A stretch of 63,526 nucleotides of DNA, filler included, from Kipferlia bialata (Eukaryota): NCBI GenBank assembly GCA_003568945.1. It is 3 parts of 3 records of this genome, joined end to end, with 100 filler letters (N's around TTAATTAATTAA, not from the genome) between each part and the next. Parts side by side here need not be neighbours in the genome. Positions count along the whole stretch, not along the records: positions 1 to 28,025 come from BDIP01000159.1; 2 more parts are not named here. One strand, written 5' to 3'. Positions 577 to 56,153 of the stretch are shown in pieces (within the stretch, counting starts at the first letter, position 1; each line of letters begins with the position of its first letter). Below the pieces are notes generated by a model. The model did not search any database. It was not told the origin of the DNA and worked only from the letters and a program-made list of their open reading frames with translations. The translations under genes were made by a program, and so were the position numbers.

Positions 577-1695
577 CTACTTGGATCTCTTCTTGTGTGA
601 CTTACTCTTCTTCTTCTTCTTAGAGGGTTCCCTCCCCTCCATCTTCTCTCTCTCCCTCTGCGTGTACCCTGAGACCTCCCAGTCCTTCTCCCTGGCAGAG
701 GCATCCCTGGACCCGGCTAGAGCATCCCTAACTACCTGATGTTAGGGATATATATATATATATATATCACTATAGGATGTATCAGCAGAGAGAGCATCCC
801 TAACTACCTACTATAAGGGTGTCATATAACAACAGACATATATATATATATATATATGCATCAGTGGAGCCAGAGAGGGCATAGGATAGTATCTAAGTAT
901 AGAAATACATGTCAGTACATATATAGTGAGAGATAATCAAAGAAATAGGGCATCACGCACAACCTAGCTGTTAGGATAGTAGTAGTCTATACATATACAT
1001 ATATATAATGAGAGAGAATCTAGGGCATCACACACAACCTAGGGTCAATAGAGAGGCTGTCAGTAGAAATAGTATCAACAGCTATCAGTGTACAAGAAAC
1101 AGTACGTATCAATGCAACTACTATATTTAGGCATTACCTTAGGCGTCACTTTGGTCAAATAGCACTTACAAGCACAGCATATATATATATATATATATAT
1201 ACATTTAATAAGTGTTTACCTTTGGCGTCACCCTGAGGCATATCTCGATGTCAAAGTATATACATAGTATCCACCAGCATAGTATACTTATGAACATATA
1301 TATTACATGTAGATATATATATATATTAATATTATGGTGTATACCTTGGGTTGCACCCTGAGGCATATCTCGATGTCAAAGTTGTCGAGGTACAGAGAGG
1401 GGGAACGGCCCGGCTTGACAAACCACTTCCTGAGGGTTAAGTATATATATATAATACATAAACGTATACCAGTATTGTATATAATACTTCCTGAGGGTAA
1501 GTTTTTAGATAACATATATATATATATACTTTGAAACTGACGAACATGCGCAGCAGTGCGAGTGCTCTCTTGAGAGTGAGCTATCTTCCGTCTCTCTCTC
1601 TCATTCTCCCACCATTTGTGTATATGCATAATAGTATCTGATTAATATGCGCTGCAGTGCCAGAGCCCTCTTTGAGTTGTCCTCCATCTCATCCA

Positions 1696-1729
<34 letters not shown>

Positions 1730-3572
1730 CATACAGTACCTAATGAATATGCGCTGTAAGGCCAGTGCTCTCTTTGAGTTGTCCTCCATCTCATCAATCA
1801 AGTCCTCCTGTACCAGCATGGCCTCCACAACTGTGTCTGGAGTGAGCATAGTATATATATAAGAGTACCATTCATATGAAAGTATAAATATATATATCAG
1901 GTCCTCCTGTACCAGCATGGCCTCGACCACAGTGTCTGGAGTCAGAATACTATATATATNNNNNNNNNNNNNNNNNNNNNNNNNNNNNNNNNNNNNNNNN
2001 NNNNNNNNNNNNNNNNNNNNNNNNNNNNNNNNNNNNNNNNNNNNNNNNNNNNNNNNNNNNNNNNNNNNNNNNNNNNNNNNNNNNNNNNNNNNNNNNNNNN
2101 NNNNNNNNNNTAATATATATATATTATACATAATTATATAATTGGTATTAATATGGAAGTGTATATACATGGACGTCCTGTATCAGCATGGCCTCGACCA
2201 CGGTGTCTGGAGTGAGCATTACATGAATACATAGGAGCTGGGAATGTACAAGTATATGACTGCTAGTATATATATACATGACACTGATACCTATACTCTC
2301 TTATGGAGTGCGGGTTGTCTCTATGTATACTATATACCATACACATACTATATACTATAAGCGTAACTATATATATATATATATACTATATGGGTAAAAC
2401 ACTGGTACCTATGGAGTGCGGGTAGTCCCTGGGCAGGCCCTCGAGGTGCCTGGTGTAGAAGACCCTGGGGTGAGGTGATTATATAGAGCAGTACAATATC
2501 AATGACTCTCCCTGCCTCATGAACCCCCCCCCCTCTCTCTCTCTATATATATATATATAGTGGAATTACTCACTCTGAGTTCATGATGTCCCTCTCTGCC
2601 TCGTGGACCAGTCTGTTAGGACATCCTAGCAGTGTCTGCACGCTCTTGGCAGGTATCAGCAGATGCCCCTCCTCCTCGTGACACAGGTTGTTCTGGATGA
2701 ACTCCTGCGTCTTGTCCCGACTCTTCTGCCTGTCCCGCTGCTTACCAGCAACACCCTCCCTTCTGTTACGCTCGTCGATGGCACGCAGCAGACGCCGCTT
2801 GCCCTTGAGGTCTAGAGTGGGGTGGTCTTCTAGTAGGGATAGTCTGGGGTCGAGGGGGGCACCGTCAGTCTCGACACGAGCCCTGGCCTTGACCTGGAGT
2901 GAGAAGACTAGAAAAGAACACAATTCTATAACATAAAGTGAATGATTTCTATAGACTAGATGAAAGTAATCAGACTGGGAATACACCTGAGCACTGGCCT
3001 TGACCTGGGTTAAATACAATCAGTGAATATATATATATATATATGCATTTACATAGCCTTAACTTGGACTGTATCTCCTCGATGGTGTCAGACTCTGAGT
3101 CAATATAGCATGAATGTATACTCTATATATATACAGTATCAATATAGTATATATACAATGATACCTTTGACTGTATCTCCTCGATGGTGTCAGACTCTGA
3201 GTCACTAGTCTCCTCTGTGTCTGACTGTACAGAGTATGTGTCACTGGTCTCATCCACAGACTCAGACCCAGAGGCAGAGTCCTGGGGTCAGAAGTCCAAA
3301 TATGCAAGAATAATGAATACTATCATGTAAGATGCATATATAGAGGGAGTCTCATCAGCAGACTCAGACCCAGAGGCAGACTCCTGAGAGTCAGAGGAGA
3401 CCATAGTATAATGGAACAATATATCCAAAGAGTCCTAAGTAAGTAGCCAGTAGACAGCAGTAATACATATATCTACACTTAGCATCAGATAGACCACTGT
3501 ATAATGTGTACCTCAGTCTCTGTCTCTGTCTCTGCATCTGTGTCACTATGTCATACAAAGAATACATAAATG

Positions 3573-3603
<31 letters not shown>

Positions 3604-4491
3604 CCTCTGTCTCTGTCTCTGTCTCTGCATCTGTGTCACTGTCCAGGTTGGCCTCCCCAGCTGTGTCACCGTGCTCCTTGTTGAACCTAGTTCATTAGAG
3701 ATACAATATACAAAGGAGTAGGAGGTCAGAGATACATTATACTAATAGTACATTAATTAATTAATTAATGAAATGAGTAATATATTTATATATAAATATA
3801 TTTCGAGCTGTGTCACCGTGCTCCTTGTTGAACCTAAGGGGTTAGAGAGGATGGAGTATCATATCAGTATTATCAATCAAAGATACACTCTGACTCAGAG
3901 ACATGTAACACCAGTCTGTATGTATCATCTACCTATACTCTGCCTCTGCAAAGGTGAGTGCTCTGTCAGTGAGCCATGCATACTCATGCCCATCACTCTT
4001 CTCAGCCTCACTGCCATCCTTGCCATCCTCAGTCTCTCCACCAATGTCATCATCGTGTCTGGACCTGGCTGACTCATACTCAGAGGAGCCCTCCTGAGTA
4101 TAAGATATGATATATATACATAAATATATATAAGTATCCCTATATACATGCATACATACTCGTAGTCAGAGGAGTCATCCTGGCTATGAGAATGAAAAGA
4201 GGGTACTATTAGAGATTAGTGAAATGTATATAGTGTATATATAGGTTTGTATAAATATATGTATATATCGTAGTCAGAGGAACCGTCCTGAATAATAGAA
4301 TGAAGTATTAGAAATACATAATTATATATCTATAGTAATGAGGTTAATGTATATATATATACTATCCCACCTCGAATGTGTCGTCGTCTGACTCTGTCCT
4401 AGACTCCTCTGGGTGGGACAGGGTTACCCTCTTCTTCTTGACAGGCACGGACTTGGCCTGAGATGAGTATACACTATATATGTATGTGTAT

Positions 4492-4528
<37 letters not shown>

Positions 4529-7500
4529 GAGAGTGACCCTCTTCTTCTTGACAGGCACGGGCTTGACCTAGGATTAGAAACCAAGTATATAGATACTATA
4601 GAGCAAATCGAGAAGGTCCTACCACAACAACAACAAAGAAGAAATATACCCTACCTTCGGCTTGAGCTTGGTCTTGGGTGCGTGACCGGCTGCATCTCTC
4701 TTCGCCCTCCTCTCTCTCTCCCTCCGCTCTAACTCCTCCTCCTCTCTCTGAGCAGCACTCTTGGCACCCAGCCTCGCCTTCGCAGCGGCGTCTCTCCTGG
4801 CCCTTCTCTCCCTCTCCCTCTCCTCCGCCTCTCTCTCCTCTCTCTTCGCCTCCTCCTCCTTGGCTCTCTTCTTAGCTTCCCTCTCAACCAGATCAGCAGC
4901 CTTGATTCTCTCTCTCTCCTCAGCGGCTAGAGCGGCTCTCCGGGCTCTCTTTGCCTCTACAGCCCTCTCTCTCTCCACCCTCTCAGCCTCCTCCTGCTGT
5001 CTTCGCATCTCCTCCTCGGCCTCCCTCTTACTCCTCCCCTCCTCTATCAGCCTCGCTCTCTCTGCGTTGTGCTTCTGGATCCTGGCAGCAGCCTCGGCCT
5101 TCAGCTGCCTCTTGGACCTCTCTCTCTCTCCACCAACACTAGCTCTCTCTCTCTCCCTCCTCTTCTTCACCTTCTTGATGGCCTCTCCCTCCAGCTGTTC
5201 AACCTCAGCCTCACTAAGACTGAAGATAGTACCCACTACCTCCCTGGGGTAGCTGTAGCTGCCTGTCTCCTGATCACAGCAGTGTCTGTGCGCCTCCTTA
5301 GCTAAGTGCTGCTTACCAGGAGAGGGACCCAGTTTAGACAGTGCTGTCAGTACATCAGCCCCTGCCGCCCTGGTTCCACTGGCACCCATAAGACGGGGAA
5401 CAGGGGGAGAGGTGGATGATGCACCACCTTCCACATCCTCAGTGGGTGGGGTGACGTGGCTGTTGAGGAAGGTGATCCAACTGCCAAGCTCGGGGTCTTG
5501 CAGAGCCTGAATATCAGCACACATGCAACACTACTCTAAATATATATATTATTATACACATTAATGTATATATATATATATATACCTTTTTGGCAGCGAC
5601 TACGTCCAAGGGCAGACAGTCCGACATGGCTCTCAGAGAGGGCTGCTTCTTGGTCTTGTCAGCCTTGGTGGGGTCGCCATAGTGCCTCAGGGAGGCGAAG
5701 AGCTTGGCAAACAAGGACATCTTGAGAGCGGCTATGGCCTCTGCGGAGAGACGTCTATCGTACAGCCTGACGAGTCTGTCCAGTAGGTGCAGGGACTGGG
5801 ACATCGTCTGCTTGGAGGAGGCGGAGGTGCACTTAGATATCATTCTGAGGTTAGGAATTGACAGAGATAATATGAAAGTGGGTAAGATATATAGTGTGTA
5901 CATCATCTGCTTGGGGGATGGGGAGGTGCACTTGGATATCATCCTGGGGGTAAAGGAGAGAGTATAAGAGAGATTAAAGTAATGGAGAGATTGGGGTAAA
6001 CGAGAGATTAACACATAGATTGTGTAGGAGGAAGAGGTGTACTTGGATATCACCCTGAGAGGTAAGAAGGAACATCGAAGATTGGTAAGACAAGGAGAGT
6101 GTGTGTATATAGTATATATCATAAGTCCCCGCCTCTGTCTAGCTGGTATGTCCCCAGGCAGAAATAGTCTTAGTGTATAATATATATATATATATACTTC
6201 GTATATATGTAGTCCTCACCTCTGTCTAGCACTTGATACAGCAGGCATGTCCCCAGGCAGTGATAGTGATAGAGTATCACATACATACATGCAAATATAT
6301 GTATACACATATATATAGTACATATGTAGCGTCTACCTTTGTCTAGCACTAGATACAGCAGGCATGTCCCCAGGCAGAGGTGCCTCTCTGCTAGGCACCA
6401 CCGCCGCTGTCACACCCACACCCTGCACAAAGGGTCTCTCTCTCTCTCTCTCTGGCTGGACAAAGGGGGGCAGGGCAGGTGGTACGGGAACTGGGGGTGC
6501 GTTGGTACCTGTACCACTGATGGTGCCATAGGTACTGGATGTACTAGAGATGTCAGTACTGGTTGTTGTGGTGTCAGTGGCCTCTGGTACGGGGGGCAGC
6601 TTCTCAGCAGTAGAGGTAGAGACAGCGGGAGACACAGCCTTCTGAGTCTTATGGGTCTCAGTAGGTCTTGCAGCAATGGGTACAGAGGGAGGACGGGGGC
6701 GGAGAGGCCTAGAGCTGCTAGGAGCGGTAATAGCTACAGCGGGTGCCTCCACCACTGGTCTTGGCTGCAGAACACGTCTAGTCTTTGGTACAGGCTTAGG
6801 TACATCAGTGATGTCACCACTGACCATGCTCTCGAGTAGTGAGGTGGGTATGGGGGCATCACTGGATGTGGTCACAACAGCCTCTTCCACAGCCATATCC
6901 ACATCACCCTCTGCCTCTGCCTCTGAGTTGACATCAACAACAGGGTCCACTGCACCCACAGACTCTACAGTGGCACCCTGTATCTCTCTCTCTACCTCTC
7001 TCTCTCCCTCTGGTTCAGCAGGTGAGGGCGACTTCTGAGGCCTCTTACTCTCTGGCCCTGCTACATCGGCCTCTCCCTTCCTAGCCCTCTTGGCACCAGG
7101 CTGCTGATCTCCCATAGTATCTCTCTCCCTCTCTCTGACACTTGAAGTCTCATCCACTGCCTCTCTCTCTCTCTCCTTCTCTCTCTCTCCCTTGGCCTCT
7201 GCCACAGCCCTATCCCTCACCTCCATCACCAGTGCGGCAGTGCACCCCATCTCCTTAGCCACAGATATGACATCAGACTGCAGCTCACCACTGTCCTTGT
7301 GACAGTACCACTTCTTGATGAACCGGTGGCTCTCAGCCTCTATGAGACCCTTGGACAGCTCGGAATCAAGGGCAGAGACATACCGCCTATAGGAGGCCAG
7401 CTCCACTGCCATGTCTCCCTCCCCACCGGCATTGACGTCGAGGGTCTCCACGTCCAGCACCTGCTCCTCCTCGGGTATGGACACCTCCACCTCTATGCCG

Positions 7501-9760
7501 TCAGAGTCTCCATCCAGCACAGTCATGGTGGGTGCCACCCCAGCTGCCAGTCTCTGCTGTCGGAGGGTGGCCTTGCGCCTCTCGACTGCAGCGGCCATCC
7601 TCTTCAGACTGGCCTGCGTTAGACATACTCGTTTCTCTTATTACTCATTGTATATAATTCAATAATGATAATTATCCCAATGATGCATATTGTGATGATA
7701 TAATATATATCTTTGCAATCATCTTGCTTATCAGGTTCCTTGGAGACTTGCCTGTCTTGCCTTCTCTTTCCGGTACTGGTTCCTCTCCTGTGTCAGCCTC
7801 CTCTGCTCCTCGGTGACGGTGGCGTTCAGCACAGTCTGACTCACCTTGTTATTAATAGTTGTATAGTGAAATAATGAATTCTAATTGTCGGCTGACTGAC
7901 CTTATTCATAATAGATGTATTGTACAATAATGATGCTAACTCTAATTATAATTGTCAGTAATTCCCAGGCACTTAGCACTGTCTGACTCACCTCTATCTC
8001 TGGATCAGGGGCATACTTGCACTCTACCTCAGCAACAGACAGACCGACCAGAGGAGGGGTGGCTGGGGCCTTAGCAGTGGCAGTAGTGGCACTATTAGGG
8101 TCTGAGAGGGTGGATGTTACTGCAGGGCTCTCTTGTGTAGATGTAGGGGCCATATCCACATCCCCCTCCTCCTCCACTGTCTCTCTCTGTGGCTGGGTGT
8201 TACGTGCACGCACATTCATCACAGCTGTCAGTGCGGGTGATGCACCATCAGGAGGGGGTACAGTGGGAGGGGGTAGAGGGTCAGGCTTCCGCATAGCTAG
8301 TATCAGTTCATCTTCCTCCTGTCTCTCTCTCTCTCTTTCCTTTGCTCTGGCCCGTACTCTGTCCTGGCCGTCCTAGAAGGTGAGATGTCTATAATACACC
8401 CACATATATGAATACTCACCCACAAATGTGTATGTATGAGTTTTCACTGTCGCAGAAGGGTATTTGATGCCACTCTAAAACATAATAAGTGAGTGTATGT
8501 ATCGTAGGTGAGGTGCCATTTACCTTATACACCCAGTTGGAACACTGAAGCAGCTGACAGACCCTGTCTATACAGAGGGTGGGTACAGATGAATCAGACG
8601 CTCCAGACGCTCCAGACGCTGTAGGAGGAGGGAACATGTCTGCTATGAACTCTGACTTGGCATCGTTCCTGTGGGTGTCGTCAGTCAGCTCCTGGGGGTT
8701 ATGAGTGGGTGATATTGAATATGAAGAAGCACACGTAATCATACTCTCCTCTCATGAGATATATACGCACTCACACACAATGAAGTGTAGTGTTAGGGAT
8801 ACTAATCCTTCTGCTCCTCACACCTGCAGACTCTCGTAGAGCTGTGCTATACGCATTAACACTCTATTAGCATATACATATACACATACACTATAAACCA
8901 AACAGTTAGCCCACCTGCAGTCTCTCGTAGAGCTGTGCCAGCCCTAGCTTGAGAGTGTGTCTCCTGTCCCTGGGGTATGTGGACAGACAGTCCCTCTTGC
9001 AGTACTGACACTTTGTGGGTATGGGAGGGGGGCCGGAGTGCTTGTACACCTGCTCAGTACTGGTGTTAGACAATATGATAGTGGCCACATTCTATAGTAT
9101 ATGGAGTGTACCACTAGTACATAAGTATAGTGGAAAGGTAGCACTCTGGCAATAGTACAGATGTATAGTATGGAGGCGTTACATGTCACTCACACAGCTC
9201 AATAGGGAGATGTAGTACTGTGTTAGGGTTAGATGCCCATACCTCTTGCCAGCTACCAGAGCTGTGAGGACTGCCTCGGATACTCCCTCACCCTTCCCAC
9301 CCTCTCCCTCACTCACATCCCAGTCAACCTCATCATCACTCTCCTCTGCACCCTTCTGTGCCATCTCCACATCCCCAGTCTCTCTCTCTCTCTCCTTCTC
9401 ACCCTCTCCTCCCACCTCCTCGACCTCAGTATCGCTCTCTGTGTCACTCTCTGTCTCTGAGTCTGAGAATGAGGGTAAGGGCGGCATGGGCTGCGACATG
9501 GTCCACTCCTTAGGCACACCCTTGGCATCCACTGAGGGTGACTGTATGGGGGTGTGGGTGGGTCTAGGTGGGGGTGGGTGCACGGCGTCGAGGAGTGACA
9601 TGACAGCAGTGGAGCAGAGGGAGTGGAACACACCCTGTATGGCTGGGCACACTATGGGGTTGGATGTGTCGAAGAGGACATGGGCCGTGGAGGTGATGTG
9701 GGAGGGGGTGGAGGCGGCAATGTCTCTAAGAGGCTTGGGATCCATACTGGGGTTGAGTTG
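577..9760 (-). CDS. Large multi-exon hypothetical protein, largely low-complexity/charged coiled-coil; 5' end unresolved
   Basis: Series of GT-AG bounded open exons (e.g. ~9243-9760, 8913-9050, 8524-8691, 7992-8373, 6337-7613, 5585-5844, 4655-5514, 2574-2893, 1344-1429) ending ...EPSKKKKKSKSHKKRSK* (TAG 577-579). One CxxC (KCQYCKRDC). No family recognised; could be more than one gene. Confidence 0.6.
1960..2110. other. Scaffold gap (N run) inside an intron
   Basis: Run of N flanked by (TA)n. Confidence 0.97.
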
Positions 9761-13235: not shown

Positions 13236-15424
13236 CCCTTTGCCTTTGTTGAGCTGCTTGAGGCCAATCAGAGAATGCTGGACAGCACAGACAGTGGCAG
13301 TATCAGAAGGTATGGTATATATGCAATATTGTATATATAATTGAGGGAGAGAGAGACTAGGGATGCTGGACATCACAGACAGTGGGTCCATCAGGATGTA
13401 TAGAAGATGGGAAAGTGCTACACATATATGGAGAGAGAGAGATAGACCTGAGGATGCTGGACAGCGACTGTGTCATGTGTGATGTCTATATCTATATATA
13501 TCATCCTGCCCCCTGACCCCCAGCTACGGTGTGATGAAGGTGATCAAGAAGAAGTACACATCCCTCAAGGACAAGATGGACAAGACAACAAGGCAGAGGT
13601 ATGGGTGGATGATATGTAGAATACTATAAGTAAATATGGTGCACTTATGTCCCCTCCTCTCTTCATCCCCCACCCCAGGACCAAGAAAGATGGTGATCCC
13701 CATTATCTATATATGTGTATGTATGTATACATATATGTATATATATATTTATATCTAAGTATCCTGCCAACCCCCCCACCCCCAGGACCAAGAAGATGGT
13801 GATCCCCCTGATCGAGAGGATGAAGGAGGGTGGGGCATCCAGCCATCATCATGTCACACTGGTCAAGGCAGAGGCACAGGCAGAGGGGAAGGCAGAGACA
13901 CAGGCACAGGGCAAGGGAGAGACACAGGCAGAGGGCAAGGGAGCCGCAGAGGCTAAGCCGGTCAAGTGGTGAGTGGGGGTATTGTATAGTATTCATATAT
14001 GTCATTGTCTATGAATTTATATTCTTCATCTGATCTCCCCAGGCCCCAGGTGTACCACGTGGAGACCAAGTACCCCACCAAGAACCAGGGCAACATGGAG
14101 ACTAGGGAGAGGTATAGACAGATAGATATAGATACCTACACACACACACATATATATACATACATATATACATACATATACATATATATACTCCCTCTTC
14201 CCCATCAAGAATCAGAGCAACATGGAGACTAGGGAGAGGTGTGAATAGATATAGATATATATATATATATATATATACTCTATCCCTCTCTCTCTCTCTC
14301 TCCCACCCCTTAGGATCCGCACCAGACTGAGGTCTGTGCTGGCAGACATCTCCACCTCAGACCCTGTCCTCGCACAGTCCAGCCAGGTGTCGGCTGATGA
14401 CCTAGGTACAGGGGTTCTATATCTATATTCAGTATATGAATACCCTATATGGTATAGTAGCCACGGGTACTCAATCTCTTTCCCGCTGTATGTACCCAAT
14501 CATAACCCCCCTCACCCCCAGCCATTGTGCTTGAGTGTGAGATGTTCCAGAAGTTCGGACTGGACACAGACTCCGCTGGGTACAAGGTATAAGCAACATA
14601 TGTGAGAGTAGGCACCCTGAGTGCATTATATAGATATATGTTTATATTCTATGCACTGTATGTCTTATTCGGTCTGGACACAGACTTGGCTGGCTACAGG
14701 GTATTGTCGAAGTGGCACTGATATGTACCATACACATTCCTATGTATGACCCTGACCCCAGGACTTCTACAGACTGCTGAGGTCTGCCCTGAGGAACAAG
14801 TCCAACGTGCATCTGCAGGTATATATACTACTCTCTACACCGTGGGTGTCATGTGGATGGGTCTGGACTACTTGGATACACTCATCCCTGGTGCTCATTT
14901 CCGTGTTTGTCGTCGTATACTCCATGATTCTACCCCCGCCCCCCACCCCACCCCAGCGCCTCCTCCTGACCGGTGGCATCAGTGGCAGGAAGGTGGTGGA
15001 GTATACCACAGAGGACTTCGAGTCTAAGGTGGGTTGAACTATATCCAATATATATATATATATATATATATGAATATAATATATATCTTAGTATTCATAC
15101 TCCTTTGCTTATACCCCCAGGCCCAGAAGGATGCCCGTGCCGATATAGATATACCCGTATAACCCCATATATCTATAGTTGTATGTGGCACTATACACAT
15201 TCCCCTTCCTCACCCCAGGCCCAGAAGGATGCCCGTGCCGATGTGGTCGAGTACCACAGGGCACTGGCCAACCCGGCAAAGCTGGCTCAGGTGGGGAGAG
15301 ACGGTGACTCTCCATATCTCTCATTGACTCTCTCTCTCTCTCTCTCTCTCTCTCCACCCCCCGTTTGACACTCAGTCCCATGCCAGATAGATGTCATCTG
15401 TATATACCACCAGTTCCTACACTC

Positions 15425-15455
<31 letters not shown>

Positions 15456-15704
15456 ACACACTCACTCACCCCCAGTCCCATGCCAGTGTGTCTGACCAGT
15501 TCCCGTGCTCAAAGTGCAAGGCTAAGCAGGTGGGGGCATGATATATATATGTATCACTGTAGTATGCATCAGTCTCGATCACAGAGTCTCTTCCCCCCTC
15601 TCTCACCCCAGACCACCTACTACCAGCTGCAGACCAGGAGTGCTGATGAGCCTATGACCACATTCTGCACATGCATCCCATGCGGACACTCGTGGAGGTT
15701 CTAA
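13236..15704 (+). CDS. TFIIS: Transcription elongation factor TFIIS (5' end hidden near poly-C tract 12981-13028)
   Basis: Spliced C-terminus [42 protein letters not shown] carries the Zn ribbon and invariant acidic hairpin (QTRSADEP). Central domain II-like exons: [13 protein letters not shown]...[17 protein letters not shown]...[21 protein letters not shown]. Confidence 0.95.
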
Positions 15705-15976: not shown

Positions 15977-18900
15977 ATGCCTGATGAGATTATGGAGGGG
16001 GAGAGAGAGGTAGAGGGAGGGAGGGGGGTAGGTACACCTGTGAAGGGTAAGGGAGGGCCTGCAACAGAGGATGTGCCTGTGGAAGGTGTCAAGGCTGAGC
16101 AGGGGGGGGGAGAGGGAGAGAAGCCCAAGAAGAAGAGGAGGAGGAGGAAGGGGAAGAAGAAGAGGTCCAAGGGGAAGGGCGCCCCTGTGCCGCCATCCAT
16201 CCAGGAGGTGAGTGACCCTGTGTATATCTATGTGTGGCTGATAGTATCAGGTGGAGTAGGCAGTTCACAGACTCTGTGTCAGTGGATAGACTGTGTAGTA
16301 TCATAATATGTACCTATTCCCATTGCCCACCCCCTAGGTTGAGCAGGCTGCCCATAAGGAGGCCCTGTCGGCATACGGTAGCCCCATCAGGTAGGCTAGT
16401 ATGGCACTCACTCTCTCTTCTATAATCCGTTGCACTGCTGTGTCATTGTCAAGGTCATACCTCTGTATGTCTTCTCTTCCCATTCTTCTATTATTCTGGC
16501 CTGGTGTATGTAGAAGTATCGATAGTATGTAAGTGTATGTATCTATATTCCTATCCCCCCCCCCCCCCCCCCCCCCCCCCCACCCCCCCCCTTCCCCCCC
16601 CCCCTGGCCCCCCCCCCCCCCCCCCCCCCACACACACACACCACTTGTTCTCTGACAGACTACTCCGGGGCCTGTGACATACACTGCCATCCACTCCTCT
16701 GCCTTTACATCAGCCCCCTAGGGCATGTATCCCATATATATATAGACTCACATCACTATGTGCATTCACGGCCTTCCTGACCCTAGAGTCAGTGTCGCTA
16801 CTCCAAGACCAACACTGAGCTTGTGTATGAGATGCAACCAGACGGGGGCTGGGTGGCTACCCAGTGGGGGTTCGAAGCACACAAGGGAGGTATGGTGTAT
16901 ACTATAGGTGTTTATACGTACCATATGGTTAGTGAGGCATTATGCACTACGGTCACGGTGAGGGTGGTACCGACACGAGAGAGGTAGTGTCGACAATACA
17001 CATCACAGCGGCTGCCTGGCAAACAGTGTATTACTATACTCAAACTAAAGCTGCGTGTATGATGTTCACTTGGATATTGCTCCTTCCACCTCACCCCAGC
17101 CAGCACTGCCGCCCTTGGCCCAGAGGAGGGTGTGATGCATGTCAAGAACTTCAGACTGCTGCTAGACCCAGGTGTGTATACTATATGTATACTATATGTA
17201 TACTCTGTATGGTAGAGTATCAGAATCACTGGGTTCAGATACTCTCTCTGTATTTGTAGCTACCATGCCTCCACCGTGATAACGTGTAAAAACACCTACC
17301 CCAGACTCCCCGAGTGCAGGTGGTACGGACAGAGCCAGGATTCAGCTGCCCCCAGGTACAGTGCCTCTAGACTATAGTAGTTGTCTATCTTCCTCCCTCG
17401 ACCCCCCCCCACACATATATGTGTGTGCACCCCCGTATACACCCCCCCTCCCCCTTCTCCCCTTTAGGCAAGACTGTGGTCAATGTCCTGGCAGACTACT
17501 TGAGGTTCATGACTCAGCACTCGATGAAGGTATAGAGAGGTTTATGGGTGCTAGGTAGTATTGTGCTGTTTGTTTGAAGAGTATATACACCCTACCTATA
17601 TACATATATATATACACCCTGCCTAGATGGAAGTGGTGCTGCTTCTCGTGAGTATACATATATACATATCTATACACCATATGTATATACGTACCACCCT
17701 GATGCATCATACATATATATATACCACACTGATACTGACACCCCAGGTTCTCCACAGGGCCTACACTGTCTCCTCCTTCTCTGTATCGGATGTGATGTGG
17801 TGCATAGCCGTGCCTGCCAGGGTGAGGCTCAGCTGGTGTTCAATATGCCGTGTATATTGATGGGTTGGCAGTATCAGGCTGTGTGTCCCGTCACCATCAG
17901 TCTCTCTCCCCTACCGTATGTTTCAGTTCACCCCCCTGTGCTACATTACTCCCAGTCTCCTGCTGATACTGACACTGACCCCCAGTGGCTGTATCTATAT
18001 GTATACATACACTGACACTGACCCCCAGTGGCGTGGCAGGGCATGGACTCAGATGAGAGAGGCAGCCACAGAGGCAGGTGAGGCATATATGCATATGAGA
18101 TGGGAACGCAAGGGCACTCATTAATACACTGACACCAACCTCACTACTTATCCCTTGTTGGATCCGACACTTCCCCGAGTCCCGCAGCAGTATCAGTATA
18201 TATAGGTGATACTACTGACCCCAGGTCTCGTCTCGTCCCCTAACAGCCCCCGCCTGCACCTAGTAGCCGAGGCAGAAGCTGCTTTGGTATATATGGACAG
18301 CCTTGGGGTGCGCCAGTATCATTCACATATGTATATATATATGGGAGTGAGTGTGTATTGTCTATACGTATATCTATTACACTGTGTACTCACCTCAGAA
18401 CCCAGAGTTTCTGTCCAACGCGATGCAGAGGCTAGCTGAGGTGAATCTATGTGCAAGTCTTATAGTAAGCTATCGCAGGAGTATGCCCTAGTTCATAATG
18501 GCATTGTCTACAGCATCCTACGCTAGTATCCACACTCACATTACCGTCACACCCTTATGTACCAGACCCCCTTCCGCACCAGAGAGGGAGAGGTGACCAT
18601 GGTGGTGGATGCAGGTATCAGTATGGGTAGTACACATATATATAGTAGATATATAGTAGCTGTAGTACACACTCACATTGTGACCATGGTGGTGGATGCA
18701 GGTATCAGTATGGGTAGTATACAAATACATATATATAGTAGATCTATAGTAGATATAGTGGACACTCATAATGTGACCATGGTGGTGGATGCAGGTATGA
18801 GTCTCAGTATAGATAGTCTATATAGTTGATACATAGCAGATACTGAGACTGAGGCTGAGGCTGCGACTGCCTGTGACCATGGTGGTGGATCCAGGCGCAT

Positions 18901-20824
18901 TAATATGCCGCATATACACGTCTTGTACTGCATTTCATACCACTGCAGTGTGTGGGGTATGAGGGATATGACTGTTGTATATGACGGTGGAAGTCGGAGT
19001 ATTCGAGTTCAGTAACGAGATGCATACACTCATGATTATGAACTCATATGTGTACTGATATATCCTCTCTAACCCCCAGGTGCCACTTCTGTTGACATCA
19101 CCACATACCGGAAGGCAGGGCCAGGGACAGACGCACTCATGCACAGAGACAGGGTGGCCACGCTGGTACGAGTTGAGCTATTCTGCGTCCCCCTACCTAG
19201 CGAGTATGAGGTGTTATGCTCTATCGATATATTCCACTCTATTCTATGACCAATGCCAGGTCAGCAGTGCGTACGACGTCACCAGCGACATGACCCTTTC
19301 TGAGTGTGTAGACTTGGCATTCAGGGTATCAGCACCTGTATATATACACTGATATTTAACACCTATATATATTCACTGATATTTACATACAGACACTGAG
19401 TGTGTAGACATGGCATTCAGGGTATGTGTTCTCTCTCTAATATGTGTGTCTGGGTGAATGCATGTGCTTATCGATGGGTGTCACCATGTTGCATGTCTCA
19501 ACTGCGCATCCTACGATACATATTGAGCATGGTATGGTGTGTATCGGGTGTATGTGTAGTCTCCTGTTCTTTTCGGGGTATTAGATGTGTCTTAGTAAGA
19601 CGTCATACAATGGCCATCTTTGTATATCTGTTTGGTATCATCATTATACCTCTTCCGTCTGTACCCACGCTAGGACTGGGTGGTTGGCAAGGTGTCCCTG
19701 AGAGTGGTAGAGGAGATGGAAAGAGACAGACCAGGGTGAGTTATCTGTATACCCACTGGTGCACATCGTATATAGGTATATACGTATGAGATATCCAAAT
19801 ACGTATCAGTGCTCTCCGGTTGCAAATGGTCATGCCGGGTCTCAGGTCCCAGTAGGAATAATGTCTATGCATACGTGTGTCCCTATTCCCCAGGGCCCCA
19901 ACAACCTGTATCAGTGTCTTTTGTTGTTTCAAATATATTCATCCATATTACTATTCTATACAGGCTATTGTATTCATCTGTACTCCCTTTCTATACCCTT
20001 CATGACTCTCTCACCCCCCAGGGCCATGTACCACCTGTATGACCAGTGGAGGATGGAACGCCGCTTCGATGTGTGGAACGATAAGGTACAATAGAATTGT
20101 GTAGGGCCCTTTCCACGTACCAGTGACTGGTACGGTACCAGTCCCTCTAGATTAACCCAGATGCACTCATACACTGTATTGTATTCTATATATATATACA
20201 CATACAGAACTGTCCGTCATCCGTTGCTTACCTTCCATAACCACCCAGGATTACGACGATCACTACATCAGATTGTCCGGTTCGATGCTAAAGTGCATCG
20301 AGTCCCACCTGGCAGAGGAGGATGTGTTCGCTAGACTGGGGGTGGGTGGTTCTGTATACATCACACATGGGACCAATACACTTCATGGGCAGTCACATGG
20401 GTACTTATATATCATGACTGCCTCTGTCACCGGTGACATTGACATTCACATTCACATTGAAAATTGTTCTACCCTGGCCCTTCATACAGACACTGCCCCC
20501 GAGCCCTATAGTCTATAGGCTATAGACACTATCCATAACCGCTAATCAATATTCTGTACTATTCAGTATACACTGCCTGTAACATCTGTTGGCTGAGCAG
20601 GACAGTATTGGTATCAGTCTCAGACTTCAATTTCATAGGACTGATGACTGACGCTGCCTCTGACCCCTCTAGCCTATATACAATGTATACTATATATACA
20701 ATGTATACTATACACTGTCACTTACCCCTCTAGCCTATATACTATATATACTATATATACAATGTGTACTATACACTGTCCCTGACCCCTCTAGCCTATA
20801 TACTATGTATTATGTATTACATAT

Positions 20825-20855
<31 letters not shown>

Positions 20856-21893
20856 ACATATATATAACATATATACCATACACTGCCTCTGACCCCTCTA
20901 GGCCGAGCAGGACGGGGAAGAGGATGACCTGGTCCTGTGCCTCAAGGACAGAGAGAGAATGTTCGACCCTACAGTGGAGAGGATACTAGGCAGGGCTGAA
21001 GAGAGTATTCATACACAATCCAATGCAAATCCAGTACTATCCTTGGACGGATGTATCCAGGTGTCTGACCCTAGCTCTGATCAGAAAGGAGATGCATAAC
21101 CAGAGCCATCGACACAGGTACACATATCTATGTGTATATGGGGTTACATATATCTATGTGTATATAGGGTTACATATATCTTTGTGTATATAGGGTTACA
21201 TATATCTATGTGTATATAGGGTTATGGGTGCCTTGCACAGAGAGAGAGATATCAATGCTTGCGTCCTTGGGCTACACTATATATATATACCTTTACACTA
21301 AACACTGCTAGAGTAGTCAGTACTATTGAAAATATCCTGTCGAATCTTCATTGATCGATGATCCAGACACACACTCAGTGCTGGCTACACTAACATTACT
21401 AACAACAGTGTTGGGTCCATTCTCCTAATCGGAGGATTCGCCCAATTCCCGTACCTGAAACATAGGTAGTGTGTGCATATATATTCACAGTATTCCATAT
21501 ATATACTATATATAATATCACACATTCAATCTGTACCAAGGCTGGTGTCATACTGTTTTAGTACCAATGTAGTCTAACTACCCCCCTCGCCTCCTCTGAC
21601 TGTTAGGGTGCAGGCTGAGCTGGGACAGGATGTCAGGGTGGTGTGGCCAAAGAGCCCAGGTATCAGCATCAGTATCTATATATGTATAGTGTATTCATAT
21701 ATCATATGTATAGTATATATATGTGTAGAGTTACGGAACCCTCTCGATGTGTGGTACAACCCCCATCTCACTACTGTATCTTTACTTATATATTAATCTA
21801 CATACATACTAAAACCTACACTCACTCCCAGCCACGGTTGTCATGGGGGGTGCGTGTCAGTATGCCCTGACAAGGGAGGGGCCCTGGGTATAG
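15977..21893 (+). CDS. HSPA12-like atypical Hsp70 / actin-like ATPase domain protein with a basic N-terminal extension
   Basis: Spliced motifs: YSKTNTELVY...WGFEA; KTVVNVLADYLRFM; WCIAVPA.W....MREAA..AGL; LVAEAEAA; MVVDAGATSVDITTY; RMFDPTVERIL; ILLIGGFAQFPYL...VVWPKSPATVVMGGACQYAL. This matches the HSPA12-type nucleotide-binding domain layout. Confidence 0.8.
18593..18895 (+). repeat. Four copies of exon 3' end plus donor (gtgaccatggtggtggatgcag|gt) in an Hsp70 intron
   Basis: Copies at ~18593 (live), ~18680, ~18773 and ~18873 (degenerate, donor gc). Confidence 0.9.
21118..21225 (+). repeat. Intronic tandem repeat, ~26-nt unit x4 (tacatatatctatgtgtatatagggt)
   Basis: Directly visible head-to-tail copies. 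Confidence 0.9.
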
Positions 21894-28025: not shown

Positions 28026-28125
28026 NNNNNNNNNNNNNNNNNNNNNNNNNNNNNNNNNNNNNNNNNNNNTTAATTAATTAANNNNNNNNNNNNNNNNNNN
28101 NNNNNNNNNNNNNNNNNNNNNNNNN
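28026..28125. other. Artificial contig linker N..TTAATTAATTAA..N
   Basis: Six-frame stop spacer (28070-28081) between N runs. Confidence 0.95.
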
Positions 28126-29588: not shown

Positions 29589-29826
29589 GGTGATATGAAG
29601 GGTGCCTTCTTCCACCTGAGGGGTGCAGTCAGGGTCACCCAGGCCATGGTCAGAGAGACAATACAGCTAATCAAGAGGAGGTATACATATACATAAACTA
29701 TAATACATGTACTACACTATACTATATACACTATACATATAATATAGTGAATTTGGTTATATATAGTCAGGGTCACACAGGCCATGGTCAGAGAGACCAT
29801 CCAGCTCATCAAGAGGAGGTATGCCA

Positions 29827-29863
<37 letters not shown>

Positions 29864-32745
29864 ATACTCACCCTAGATGTCCAGGCGTTGAGTGCCATGT
29901 GGCCCCCTATGATCTCTCTCTCTCTTATTCTGTATCTGCCTCTCAATCGTAGGTGTCCAGGTGTTGAGTGCCTTGTTGCCCCCCATGATCTCTCTCTCTC
30001 TCTCTCTCTCTCTTTTGTCATCCTTGACCCTCTTAATCGAAGGTGTCCCGGTGTTGAGTGCCTTGTTGCCCCCTATGATCCTCTCTCTCTCTATATATAT
30101 CTCTCCCTCTCTTAGATATTCTCACTCCAGGTGCCCAGGTGTTGAGTGCCTAGTTGCCCCCTATGAGGCCGATGCCCAGCTGTGCTACCTGGCACAGACA
30201 GGCCAGGTGGACTTTGTGTTGACAGAGGTACATGCATTCCTACACATCATATCTATTTGTACTCACGGAGGTATGTATATGAGCCTGTTGCTGATTCAGT
30301 AAAGATACTTGACCCGTTTCTCCCTCTCTCTACCCCTTCTACCTATCAGGACAGTGACCTCCTTGTCTTTGGCTGTGAGAAGGTCATGTTCAAGTTCAAC
30401 AAGGCAAACGGTACGAATCCATCACGCTTACAGAGTCAATCTGTTTTTTGTCGTATCCAAAGTAGCCATGTCTCACCGTTAGGAACAGGTGACTTTCTGA
30501 TCCGGGACCTTGCTTCCCAACAGGCAGGGTGCTTCTCCGGCATGTCACCGGACCAGTTCAGGTGTGACTATGCCACCAACTCCATATCGGATAATAGTAT
30601 ATATCTATAATGTATATTGTGGCTCCGCCTACTATAGTACTGATGGCAGGGACACGTGCATCCTGAGTGGGTGTGACTATGCCACCAACTGTATATATAT
30701 ACTGTATGTACCTACATTGTATGTCATATATATGCTCAATGCTACACCCCAGAGACACGTGCATCCTCAGTGGGTGTGACTATGCCACCAACATACAGGG
30801 CATATTATATATTGACATAGTATATATATATATATATTTGTTAGGTAATGCTTCAGTACTACTAACCTCTAGAGACACCTGCATCCTGAGTGGGTGTGAC
30901 TATGCCACCAACATACAGGGCATAGGCCTCAAGACAGCAGCCAAGATGGTCAGGGAGAGCAAGGACGCGCTGAGGTACGGTGTGGTTCTACACGATACAT
31001 ATCAGTATTGTATTCATATATGCATATTGTTATTGTTCCTCTCACCCCAGGGTCATTCAGCAGCTGAGGGGCACTGCAAAGTTCGGGAGTAAGGTACGTA
31101 CAGGTGTATATATATAGCGACGCTCACTCTCTCCAATGAGTAGTATGTAGAGATTCCGTTCAGGTTTTCTTTTCCCCCCCGAGAGACTCTCTTGGCTATT
31201 ACTATCTAGTAACTAAGAGTATTTACTCACCCTTCAGATACCCGAGGGCTATGCATCACTGGTGGAGAGGGCACAGCTGTCATTCAGGTACATGCCATAT
31301 ATGATATATATATATTTACATATTTATAAATGCTGTTCTGTTCCGACATACTGCCCATTAGTCCGTACTGTGTATGAGTACACCTTGTGAATACCACATA
31401 TTATATAGTGTGGAGTACTCTGTCTCTTATTCTATACCTATCCCACCCTCAGGCACCAGACTGTGTATGACAGTGACAGCAGGGGCCCCTATTATAATTG
31501 TATATGATGCTACAGTATATAGTATTCTGCCGTGTGCAAATATGCTAATCCTTAGGCACCAGACTGTGTATGACAGTGACAGCAGAGGCCAGGTGCCCAT
31601 GAATGAGATCAAACCGGACACAGGAGGTATCCGCTCCATATATTGTATCACGTTATAACAACACAGGAGGTATCATGTATAGGCTATTTCTGCACGTGCT
31701 TATATCCATTAGCTGTTCTCATTCCAGCCCGTATCCAAGCCCTGGTCTCCGAGGTCGGGTGCTACTTCCTGGGGCCTGTCTATGACAATGAGGATGCAGA
31801 GAAGGTTAGTTTCATGTGTGTTATATCTAATTTGATATATATATGGTATACCTGTGGCAGTTTAGTCTATGGTAACGAGGATGCAGAGAAGGTGAGGCCA
31901 CACTATATACTGTAATATATGGTTGAGTAAGTGCTTGTTCTGTTCCCTTACCCCAGGTGGCCTGTGGTGAGTATGACGCCACCACCCACCAGCCTGTGGA
32001 TGATAGTGTACGCACAGTGGCAAAGGTACATATGTGAGATCTCTTACTGTGTTATTCTTCTGTGTATCACCTGTCCTCACCGCTCCATCTGATACCAGTC
32101 CAAGCCCCGTCCCACTGCTGCAGATATATATATACATATATATAGTATATATAGATATGACTGTATTACTAGGCCTAGTATATATCATATTGATTCCAGG
32201 CCAAGCCCAGACCCACTGCTGCAGAGAGGGCAGCCAGAAAGAAGAAGGAGGTATGGCTATGTGTTCATAACACTTATAGATAATGAGTGGTGCGTGCACG
32301 AGGTAGTGTACCATCCTCTCTGCAATACTGTCTCATACCAGGTCATGGAGGCCAAGGAGGAGAGAGATTCAAAGACGTGTGTTTCCCTGTGTATATAAGT
32401 ATTCGTGTGCCTTATTCTTAGTAGTCTCATACCAGGCCCTATATATATATATATATATATATATATTACAATAGATAATACCAGGCCAAGGAGGCCAAGG
32501 AGGAGAGAGAGAGAGATGCCCAGCAGAAGAGACAGAGGCTGCAGCTGGGGGGCGGGGTTGGACTGATGCACACTCTCACCAAGGTGTGTACATCTCCTAT
32601 CTCTTTGATCATCTCTCTCTCTCTCTCTGATACCCACACTCATATGTGTATATATGCATTTACTTCTTATGCCCACACTCACTCAGACTGAGGCCACGGC
32701 TAGACAGAGGGCCAGAGAGGTGGAGCAGGAGGTAGGGACATTCTA

Positions 32746-36330: not shown

Positions 36331-39300
36331 GTCTCGTACCAATCTGCGTATCTACGTGCTGGCCATGATGGGTCTCTACTACCGGAAGAAGAAGAAGAGA
36401 TCAGTGGCACTCTCAGAGTTCCAGCAGGCATGCGAGCTCCTGAGACACACCAAGGTACGGGTGTATGTACACATTTCTAGATGACTGAGTGCTTCCATAT
36501 ATGTCTGAATGATACACAATCCTCCCCCCCCCCCAACCTTTCTCTCATTATGCTTCTACTGTTGTTTCTATCCCTATCACTCACTCCAGGAGTTTGAGGG
36601 TGCTGGTCCAGTGTACCTGGCCACTGGGTACCTGTACTCACTGGGAGGGGGACTGGATGCCCCGCAGAAGGTATATACACTAGTGTTAGATGGGCAGAGT
36701 TAGTCACCACCTTGACTCTTCCTAGTTGACCCCAGGCCTTCCGCATGTCCCTCCGCGGACTTCAGTGGTATATACTCTCTGTCTGTAAGATGCTATGTAT
36801 ATTGTATATAGCCTCCTTTAACTCCAGGCCTTCCGCATGTCCCTCCGCGGACTGCAGTGGGCCCTTGCCCAGATACACCTGCCTGTCTCTGACCCAGACT
36901 CTGTGTCAGAGCTGGTCAAGGAGAGCGCAATCATAGGTACACACCTCCCCCCCCCCCTCCCCCGCCCCCTTCTCTCTGTGTGTCTTGCTTGTACTCTAGA
37001 CTCATTCACTCCCAGGTCACTACAATGTTGCCATTTCACTCAAGAAGGGCTCAGGATCGAAGCTCGGCGTCAAGGCAGGCAGAGACAAGGAGGTGGGTGT
37101 CTTCTTATCAATATCTGTGTGGGTCTCACCCCCAGCATAATCCATAATCACGTTCTGTTCTATCTCTGCTCTCCCTCACTCCCCCCCCATCTCTCTCTGC
37201 CTTACCCCCAGCAGGATGACCCCTACTACCACATCAGCCGTGCCCTCTCTCTCCTTCTCTCCATGTATATACAGATATCCTTGTATATGTGAATATATAT
37301 ATATCTGTCTCACCTTCAGCAGGATGACCCCTACTACCACATCAGCCGGGCCCTGTCTCTTGTGGATCTGCTACAGCTGGGTGACCACGGCATAGCAACT
37401 AGGGTGCAGAGGGCATTCAGATCATTCGATGCTAGGTACGTTTATGCCGGTGTACTTCTAGTATATATAGGAAAGTATATAGTATACATTTGTTGTAGAG
37501 TCTGAATATGTATACATTCATATGTGTTAGTGTCTCACTCCAGGGAGCGTGCCAAGGACATGCGTGCCAGGGGTGAGTCTGGAAGGCCACACCCTGCATC
37601 AGCTGGGCCAGCAACTAGGTATAGTATAGTGAATAGTATATGTTCCCATCTGTCTATACACTCCATATACCTTCTTACCCCTAGGGCCCCCAGCTTGCCC
37701 ACTGCAATATTGTTAGTTTTGTGTGTTCATTATTACCCTCTCCCTATATGACCCCTCACCCCCAGGGCCACCAGCGTCCCCCACCTCCCCAGGCTATCCG
37801 GCACCACCAAGAGGGGTCAGGATGGGACAGCACGGGGCACTATCCCCAGACCCCCCACCGATGCCCCGCCCCATGCCGCCACAGCCTACAAGCCAAGCAG
37901 TGCGCCCAGTGGGTCATCCTTCACATCCTCCTACCACCTCGCTGCCACTACTAGACCTCCCCAGGGGCATATCCAGATGGATGACACCACTGGGTTCAGG
38001 AGCGTGCCCAGTGGCAACATGACAATCAGGTACAGTGCCATATACTAAAAATATATATAATTATTGTAGTTTAGTATATAATGGTGCTATAATATGCTAA
38101 CTCCAGGCCCCCCGATGAGAATGAGCTCCCTGCATCTAGGTTCGAGAGGGACTCCTACGACGATGGGGTGGACATCCCATCCCCTAGCTCGTTCATCCCA
38201 AGGCCGCCTAGTAAGGTAAGATCATATATATACTATCCGAATGGTATAGAACAGTGGGTTATGTGCGTGTTGTTGCTGTTACTGATGCCCAGGGTGCCGG
38301 TGTCGGCTCAAGGGGAGGCTTTGACTTCACTGCTCCGAGACCACCCATGCCTGGCCCACCTAGGGTATGTATATACTTTACTCTCCACCTCTCTGTCTCT
38401 CTCTATATATATGTATGTGTATGTATGTTTATATATATGTATTTACTGACTCCTAGGGCAGACGCGAGAGACCTAGGGAGAGGCCTGGCAGCAGGGGTCG
38501 CAGACTGGTGGCCAGTGGGGGAGAGGATGAGTCGTACCTCCATGTGCACCCCCCATCCTCCCACAGCCAGAGGAGACAGACACCGCAGACAGGGGCCATC
38601 GCAACTGCTAGACAGGTATGTGCACTCTCTCAATACTGTATACATATTTGTATATATATGTGTATATATATGGAGAGAGAGAGAGAGACAGACGCCGCAG
38701 ACAGGGGCCATCGCAACTGCTAGACAGGTATGTGTCAAGCATACATCATACTGTTAGACTCTATAGTGTTGACTCTTCACTTCTTACATCCAGAGACAGA
38801 TGCGTGCCCTGGCCCCTGCCCCCCCTACCTCGGCACCCATTGGGGCTACAAAGTCTCGCAGACTCCGTGGAACCAAGGGTACACAGCATCACATATCATC
38901 TAGTATATATGTGTGCATGGATTCAGTGACAATGTGTTGCTAACCCCCAGCCACCAAGGGCGAGAGGTCCGTTGGCATCACGTCCTTGGGCACCGAGTCT
39001 CTGCAGCTGAGGCACTTTGCTGGGTCGGGGAAGAGCAGGGACGACGGCGTGGCACCCCCTCCCTCTGACACAGAGAGGAAGACTGCCCTCAGACTCATCC
39101 TGGCAGCCAAGCAGGTATATCCACTCGTCGCGTTGTTTTTGCGCTCTCTCTCTCTCTGTGTGTGTATGTGTGTGTGTATCTCTGGACCTTTCTCTCCCTC
39201 TCACTCCCTAGGCCGTAACTGAGGAGAGGGCTGCCACCAAGATTGAGGGTGCAGTGAGGGGCTTCCTGGTCAGAAGGAGGATCAGGAATGAAGCCATCAG

Positions 39301-56053: not shown

Positions 56054-56153
56054 NNNNNNNNNNNNNNNNNNNNNNNNNNNNNNNNNNNNNNNNNNNNTTA
56101 ATTAATTAANNNNNNNNNNNNNNNNNNNNNNNNNNNNNNNNNNNNNNNNNNNN
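56054..56153. other. Artificial contig linker N..TTAATTAATTAA..N
   Basis: Spacer at 56098-56109 between N runs. Confidence 0.95.

Follow-up and report, generated by a model that had tools for sequence, protein, structure and literature searches.

Gene G1 is modelled on the minus strand of the window, by which we mean the whole stretch of 63,526 nt of Kipferlia bialata DNA analysed here, filler included. The model runs from 9745 to 579 with 17 exons and an open frame of 1,613 aa, and no Pfam family was found above cut-off for the three exons around intron 6 and one exon further down. Intron 6 (6336-5845, minus strand, 492 nt) is probably removed from the transcript as one outer intron, and it holds decoy copies of its own junctions. 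The coding exon upstream of it, exon 6 of the model (6337..7613), ends in the real donor context, with the frame open throughout the model, and the downstream coding exon (5586..5844) is covered by an RNA contig and keeps to the open G1 frame.

Along the minus strand the real donor GT (6336) opens a layer L1 of 76 nt (6261..6336), which is intron-like and has no acceptor at its end. It is followed by a 41 nt decoy copy of the upstream exon end (6220..6260) with two differences, both synonymous, and by a decoy donor D2 (GT at 6219) that scores 6.1, against 4.8 for the real donor. The layer behind D2, L2 (6162..6219), is related to L1 with a likeness z of 1.9, a value equalled or exceeded in 5 of 88 plain introns. 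The inner decoy copy of the upstream exon end (6133..6161, 29 nt) has an in-frame deletion of 12 nt, and beyond it lies the innermost intron-like unit (6055..6132, 78 nt), running from a GC donor at 6132 (score -0.2) to an AG acceptor A3 at 6056-6055 (score 8.1). Next come the inner decoy copy of the downstream exon start (6023..6054, 32 nt, three synonymous and four amino-acid-changing differences) and layer R2 (5944..6022), which ends in the decoy acceptor A2 (AG 5945-5944) with a branch-like motif and a score of 13.7, against 12.5 for the real acceptor. The outer decoy copy of the downstream exon start (5900..5943, 44 nt, three synonymous and three amino-acid-changing differences) is followed by layer R1 (5845..5899), ending in the real acceptor A1 (AG 5846-5845). 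In order, the unit lengths are 117, 87, 78 (the inner intron), 111 and 99 nt. A first-pass annotation of this DNA had already given the same succession of real donor, two decoy donors, two decoy acceptors and real acceptor, with coordinates right to within 1-2 nt, and had described the inner donor decoy as degenerate, with a deletion and a GC donor; our analysis confirms both and adds that the deletion is 12 nt long and in frame.

The anchored scores of the copies are 36, 14.5 and 29, a score of 11 being reached by none of about 6,000 mismatched exon/intron sides, and the gapped inner donor copy has a local-alignment score of 17 (control maximum 12 among 6,000). That the innermost copies are the most diverged in this intron, as the annotation had claimed, is borne out by the acceptor copies, where over the shared 32 nt the inner one differs from the exon at seven positions and the outer one at five. 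The intron gives 8 synonymous and 7 amino-acid-changing differences; intron 6 alone cannot separate the models of origin, and the argument for alleles below therefore rests on the window-wide set. There are three sites where both decoys agree against the exon, all of them silent. All four layer units have a length divisible by three. With either decoy acceptor the frame would be kept without a stop, with either decoy donor a stop would come immediately, and neither decoy acceptor is followed by GT. In a computed fold of 5845-6336 (minus strand, folding z -1.6) hardly any of either decoy donor is left unpaired (0.00 and 0.05), against 0.55 for the real donor. This trend is absent across the other introns, so the pairing in intron 6 may be due to chance.

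The DNA itself seems reliable. The DNA run X1, a possible source of this DNA, contains all 137 sampled 31-mers from 5400-6900. Its contigs cover intron 6 only in part, but other decoy-bearing introns of G1 are crossed whole by individual X1 contigs, 370-1,083 nt long, that show no differences and have an even depth of 418-436. A merge of two haplotypes during assembly would agree with a layer period close to the length of a short read and with the gaps in the window, but the intact contigs refute it for the neighbouring introns, and together with the sampled words they make it a most improbable explanation overall. No alternative letters were found in X1 over the 26 of 30 bins covered (95% threshold), so that a single version is seen at this threshold.

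G1 is the gene richest in decoys, with copies in 10 of its 16 introns. Among the nine further introns 8-16 (736..4654, minus strand) eight have decoy copies in arrangements of 1+1, 0+1, 0+2, 2+4 and others, and for four of them the outermost joints are found in the spliced contig. One decoy in the last G1 intron specifies six residues identical to those of the exon, five of the six codons being silently changed. A 2+4 onion lies at 736-1344 (minus strand); the copies at its decoy acceptors 963 and 1038 have the same peptide in a different coding, and its order of decay is non-monotonic.

Junction copies across the window

A self-trained gene finder called too many decoys as exons. The 170 introns used here, from 13 gene models, were curated by hand, with uncertain end exons and several genes excluded, and all counts are for this one window. 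In the anchored scan, for which the rate of false hits was 0.12% per intron side, there were 58 matches in 43 introns. Two were dropped, one being off-register and one without AG, which left 56 copies (26 donor-type, 30 acceptor-type) in 41 introns, and ten additions that were gapped, found at the protein level or seen by eye brought the decoy-bearing introns to 44 of 170. One-sided introns make up 37 of these 44, and only three of the seven two-sided ones are symmetric, so the symmetry pointed out in the annotation is incidental. Donor and acceptor copies co-occur no more than expected by chance (Fisher p=0.13). The number of copies per side is 1-4, sometimes on both sides, and the density varies strongly between genes, with decoys in 10/16, 9/21 and 6/10 introns of some genes versus 6/50 and 2/30 of others.

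Each unit consists of an exon end with its splice signal and a stretch that is related to, and nearly as long as, the inner intron and lacks the far splice site. The outer period averages 101 nt (sd 20), and the medians are 30 nt for the exon copy and 68 nt for the layer. In sequence the layers are like the inner intron (mean z 1.26, n=32, p=6e-4), with median lengths of 69.5 versus 77 nt in this comparison, and their free ends have no acceptor or donor and score no better than intron interiors. Exon copies away from a junction are rare, as we found seven local matches and most of these are gapped decoys. In all nine adjacent decoy pairs the inner copy is at least as diverged as the outer one (five strictly, four ties) and never longer. 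Growth by addition of layers at the edges, also proposed in the annotation, is thereby supported as a tendency; it does not hold as a strict rule, as in the 736-1344 intron of G1 the decoy at 892 is more decayed than the inner one at 963, both being protein-level copies. Of 47 outer units, 24 have a length divisible by three (p=0.009; 11/15 in G1 and 13/32 elsewhere), and this occurs without a loss of stop codons.

The general style of the window is a G+C content near 49% and short TA-rich introns with a fused branch-acceptor; a putative branch A lies 7-8 nt from the 3' end in 114 of the 170 introns. A branch motif fused to the acceptor fits what is reported for metamonad introns (PMC6679479). 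The plus strand carries a TFIIS-like gene (13236-15704, Pfam), a dipeptidyl-peptidase-like gene (47234-52340, weak Pfam S9) and a modelled gene of 51 exons for a coiled repeat protein (36331-46661), whose repeats we take by eye to be IQ-like. Two comparison cases are also found on the plus strand. The first, at 29681..30872, lies in an Exo1-like gene (Pfam XPG_I), where introns bear 1+3 and 0+2 decoys and nearly every difference in these copies is synonymous, and at 18615..19079 there are three decoy donors, the outer one having a near-identical intron flank of the kind expected from same-allele duplication. At 20568-20913 (plus strand) an acceptor-side motif occurs four times almost without an exon copy, and at 45109-45323 (plus strand) a young-looking acceptor-type duplicate is seen, its layer nearly identical to the inner intron and its join apparently at a 3-nt microhomology. 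Gaps of N are located at 1960-2110, 28026-28125 and 56054-56153, and two of these are paired N runs around a 12-nt T/A linker, suggesting three joined contigs.

Splice-site choice

The decoys retain most of their splice signals. All 30 decoy acceptors keep the AG and 24 of them a branch-like motif, and the decoy donors keep the GT in 20 of 26 cases; its loss in the other six exceeds the prediction from the zero-fold rate (p=0.016). Decoy scores equal or exceed those of the real sites for 13 of 26 donors and 13 of 30 acceptors.

Run X2 was taken as RNA; its spliced contig of 3,133 nt skips GT-AG introns of G1. The contig piece at 5594-5846 shows no other letters, and as its match starts at 5846 and X2 depth is 0 over 5872-6270, the outer acceptor of intron 6 is used and no layer is retained there. 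The outer donor at 6336 is presumably used as well, the contig's 848 nt upstream of the next exon falling outside the compared stretch. Five other GT-AG joints in G1 are present in the X2 contig, and four of them are at the outermost sites; three of these four belong to introns that have decoys on the acceptor side only, one or two in number. The fifth joint was placed on the decoy donor at 3511, which differs from the real donor by one letter; this placement is probably due to the real copy lying in a repeat that was skipped by the tool, in a stretch at which the DNA contigs are also cut. Only the exons of G1 have RNA support, and the other gene models are hand-made.

As the outermost sites are used despite equally strong decoys, the choice of site seems to be made by position, which is most simply set by the neighbouring full-length exon. 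The spliceosome would accordingly take the site beside the full-length exon by position and not by strength, and all 492 nt of intron 6 would leave in one step. RNA structure was not supported as a general mask of the decoys, with the real site more open than the decoy for 8 of 25 donors and 17 of 28 acceptors.

The annotation had further suggested, as a possibility, inside-out splicing, in which the inner pairs would be removed before the outer one. No nested joint was found among the assembled RNA contigs, which lose rare forms, the one-sided introns are spliced at their outermost site, and most cases lack the signals for a second step, so this idea is not needed and obligatory inside-out splicing is unlikely. 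Since the decoys of intron 6 score like real sites and rare forms are lost from contigs, it is possible that stepwise removal serves as a minor side path in two-sided onions of this kind.

Several related schemes were considered and rejected. Recursive splicing or intrasplicing at the copied exon end would have usable new sites at only 9 of 30 acceptors, where a GT follows the decoy acceptor directly (it is absent in the other 21), and at none of the 26 decoy donors, as no branch-like motif precedes the copied exon end. A stwintron does not fit intron 6, whose outer donor and acceptor are intact and not interrupted by the inner unit. Alternative micro-exons were dismissed as the free layer ends score like intron interiors and the contig pieces carry the real exon letters; stops are not depleted in the read-through frame either (48 versus 50 and 58).

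Origin of the junction copies

The 56 anchored copies are about 92% identical to the real exons, with 148 differences in 1,746 nt, of which 88 are synonymous and 60 amino-acid-changing (pS 0.20, pN 0.046). The synonymous share of 0.59 is to be compared with 0.37-0.43 predicted by neutral decay after same-allele duplication (p 1e-8 to 4e-5), and only one of 750 simulations run through the same detection step reached it. Fourfold sites differ at 47 of 241 positions and zero-fold sites at 47 of 1,132, a ratio of 4.7. Duplication of the same allele caps this ratio at 2, because silent sites change in both copies and the others only in the decoy. Bootstrapping by intron gave 3.2-7.7 with none of 5,000 replicates at or below 2, and leaving out one gene at a time gave 4.5-5.4. 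A blind split by composition yielded a ratio of 7.9 in ordered and 2.2 in disordered protein regions; the zero-fold contrast of a non-blind hand split into conserved and other regions (8/472 versus 39/660) was not reproduced by the blind one (23/569 versus 24/563). A silent excess is also found in differences between decoy and decoy (14 to 15; p=0.012 against neutral).

The intron flanks of the copies are far more diverged than the exon parts. Over positions 3-12 the donor flanks are 47% identical (control 32%) and the acceptor flanks 59% (control 42%), and exon divergence does not track flank divergence (rho 0.13). A minority of the copies have near-identical flanks, which fits duplication of the same allele. 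Taken together, the ratio of 4.7 and the diverged flanks indicate that the copies likely diverged while still coding, as other alleles, and we infer that the two versions diverged for a long time in this state and came together recently. The silent differences lean to A/T in the real exon (35 versus 20, p=0.058), and GC3 is 0.685 in decoys, 0.66 in the real segments and 0.69 as window mean.

Three other accounts of the copies were weighed against an origin from alleles. Ordinary tandem duplication of a single allele across the junction, with the outer site used and neutral decay afterwards, would produce the head-to-tail layout with its regular period as well as related flanks, near-identical in the minority mentioned (18615-18702, 45109-45323), and it has precedents in lancelets and in human F7 and CBS. 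The ratio in disordered regions is also near its ceiling, but that ceiling is well passed overall and more so in ordered regions; a back-of-envelope estimate indicates that two-way gene conversion between exon and decoy could not lift the ratio above about 2, and the flanks of the 12 copies that match their exon perfectly show no greater likeness than those of the other copies. We therefore regard it as disfavoured as a general cause and leave it a small chance. It is also unlikely that the decoys are working parts of an inside-out or stepwise removal, where selection would keep inner sites and exon-like flanks as frozen snapshots while the real exon drifts silently. The retained acceptor signals, layers of normal intron size, inner pairs in intron 6 that are canonical and as strong as the outer pair, and the A/T lean of the real exon would all suit such a role, as would the AG that ends the upstream exon in 22 of 23 donor-type introns, compared with 131 of all 170 introns. 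Against it speak the predominance of one-sided introns, most of which could not finish a second step, the excess of decoy donors without GT and, weakly given the loss of rare forms, the lack of inner junctions in the contigs.

The third account, error-prone re-copying of the junction from the same chromosome, assumes that a mutated outer copy is made, that only events with silent errors survive and that the untouched original is what we see as decoy. It explains the silent bias, the diverged flanks and the A/T lean of the real exon with no need for a second allele, and the GC3 of the decoys is indeed closer to the window mean than that of the real segments. We still find it quite improbable, as it needs error rates of about 20% per base and a heavy load, and it is hard to square with five silent changes in six codons or with a copy of 72 nt that has seven silent and seven amino-acid changes and no gap.

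We believe that the stacked junction copies probably arose by imprecisely resolved DNA exchange between diverged versions of the gene, that is alleles or homologs. As the copies differ mostly at silent positions, they are likely to be scars of exchange and not layers of a splicing device. The route would be one-sided invasion with end joining. In such an event the exons of two diverged alleles would pair and their diverged introns would not; exon homology could resolve one end, and end joining close to the far side of the intron left unpaired could resolve the other. The product would have the exon end of allele B and most of its intron placed ahead of about 30 nt of the exon end of allele A and the whole A intron, or the mirror image of this. 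Each event would likely leave about 30 nt of exon and most of an intron as a new outer layer, and a repeat of the exchange on the layered allele would put the next layer outside. This outside stacking fits the gradient towards more diverged inner copies in the nine adjacent pairs, with its one counter-example, and in a few legible cases the joins seem to be at short microhomologies. The decoys would then be fairly young, near-neutral passengers. Metamonads have no Ku-based end joining and depend on homologous and alternative end-joining repair (PMC8516963). Some observations count against an origin from alleles: no second allele, strain or paralog was seen, with a single version over the X1 bins covered and no relative in protein searches or metagenome scans, the A/T lean of the real exon is unpredicted by a symmetric allele model, and the excess of outer units that are multiples of three is unexplained.

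More tentatively, and with a little less than even confidence, we speculate that a quarter of the introns preserve, layer upon layer, the traces of recombination among alleles that were strongly diverged, by about 20% at silent sites and some by far more, each layer being a snapshot of the junction of another allele. This would imply hidden sex or parasex and extreme diversity in a likely free-living metamonad, whose spliceosome would obey a strict outermost-site rule, by which the scars do no harm and sometimes become new introns. If the allele reading is true, a single genome records past recombination and population diversity, and it also shows what repair does where pairing is possible in exons but not in introns.

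Comparison with known junction duplications

The closest known parallel is the mirage repeats of lancelets (Adh3 and the globins BflGb6 and BflGb9), which are tandem copies of the exon-intron boundary at either intron end, many of them keeping AG or GT, with splicing undisturbed, and which were proposed as a source of new introns (PMC3087553). We find the same head-to-tail unit across the boundary, with signals kept and the outer acceptor used. The lancelet units are alike over both exon and intron parts, a property that only a minority of our copies share, given flank identities of 47-59% versus about 92% in the exon. The mirages were reported gene by gene, as minisatellite-like clusters with units 81-100% alike that undergo concerted evolution (PMC3087553), whereas here about a quarter of the introns are concerned, the flanks are strongly diverged and the exon copies differ mainly at silent sites. 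The parts of the lancelet report considered here describe no such codon signature (PMC3087553).

Two human loci are similar on a smaller scale. The 37-bp VNTR in intron 7 of F7 presents several functional donors in a row, of which only the most upstream is used, by position and not strength; unlike the present case it is one locus with identical short units on the donor side only (PMC1557585). In CBS 844ins68 an intron/exon junction is duplicated, the distal site is used and the upstream exon copy is spliced away to give normal mRNA, but this is a single 68-bp event at one locus (PMC2630376). Fungal stwintrons, intrasplicing and recursive splicing share with intron 6 an intron-like unit inside an intron. 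In a stwintron the inner intron interrupts an outer splice signal and the order is forced, whereas in intron 6 both outer signals are whole and nothing imposes an order.

No word beginning with "duplicat" occurs in the main text of the K. bialata genome paper (PMC5874029), and in the open literature we found no account of such a pattern in a protist. Junction duplications have been known as oddities of single genes. In this window they are frequent, at 44 of 170 introns, and their codon signature is one that same-allele duplication cannot give. Thousands of natural pairs of splice sites of equal strength would offer a direct test of positional choice in an organism with short introns. For annotation it should be noted that the decoys are easily taken for micro-exons.

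The G1 introns 7991-7845 and 7751-7614 (minus strand) start with a copy of the start of the next exon, with silent differences. The copy is 17 nt long with a score of 14.5 in the former, and in the latter it is a weaker 8-nt match with a GC donor. They are alike to the model of Rogers, where an intron is gained by duplication of an AG/GT segment (as described in PMC3087553), unlike intron 6, whose copies carry true intron flanks. The donors of both introns look exon-derived, by gain of an intron or by exact loss of an inner one, and point to a route for intron gain and turnover. At 30562-30580 (plus strand) one intron of the Exo1-like gene opens with a repeat of positions +22 to +40 of the exon that follows, which looks as though the old donor had been lost in a deletion that left an exon-derived donor in its place.
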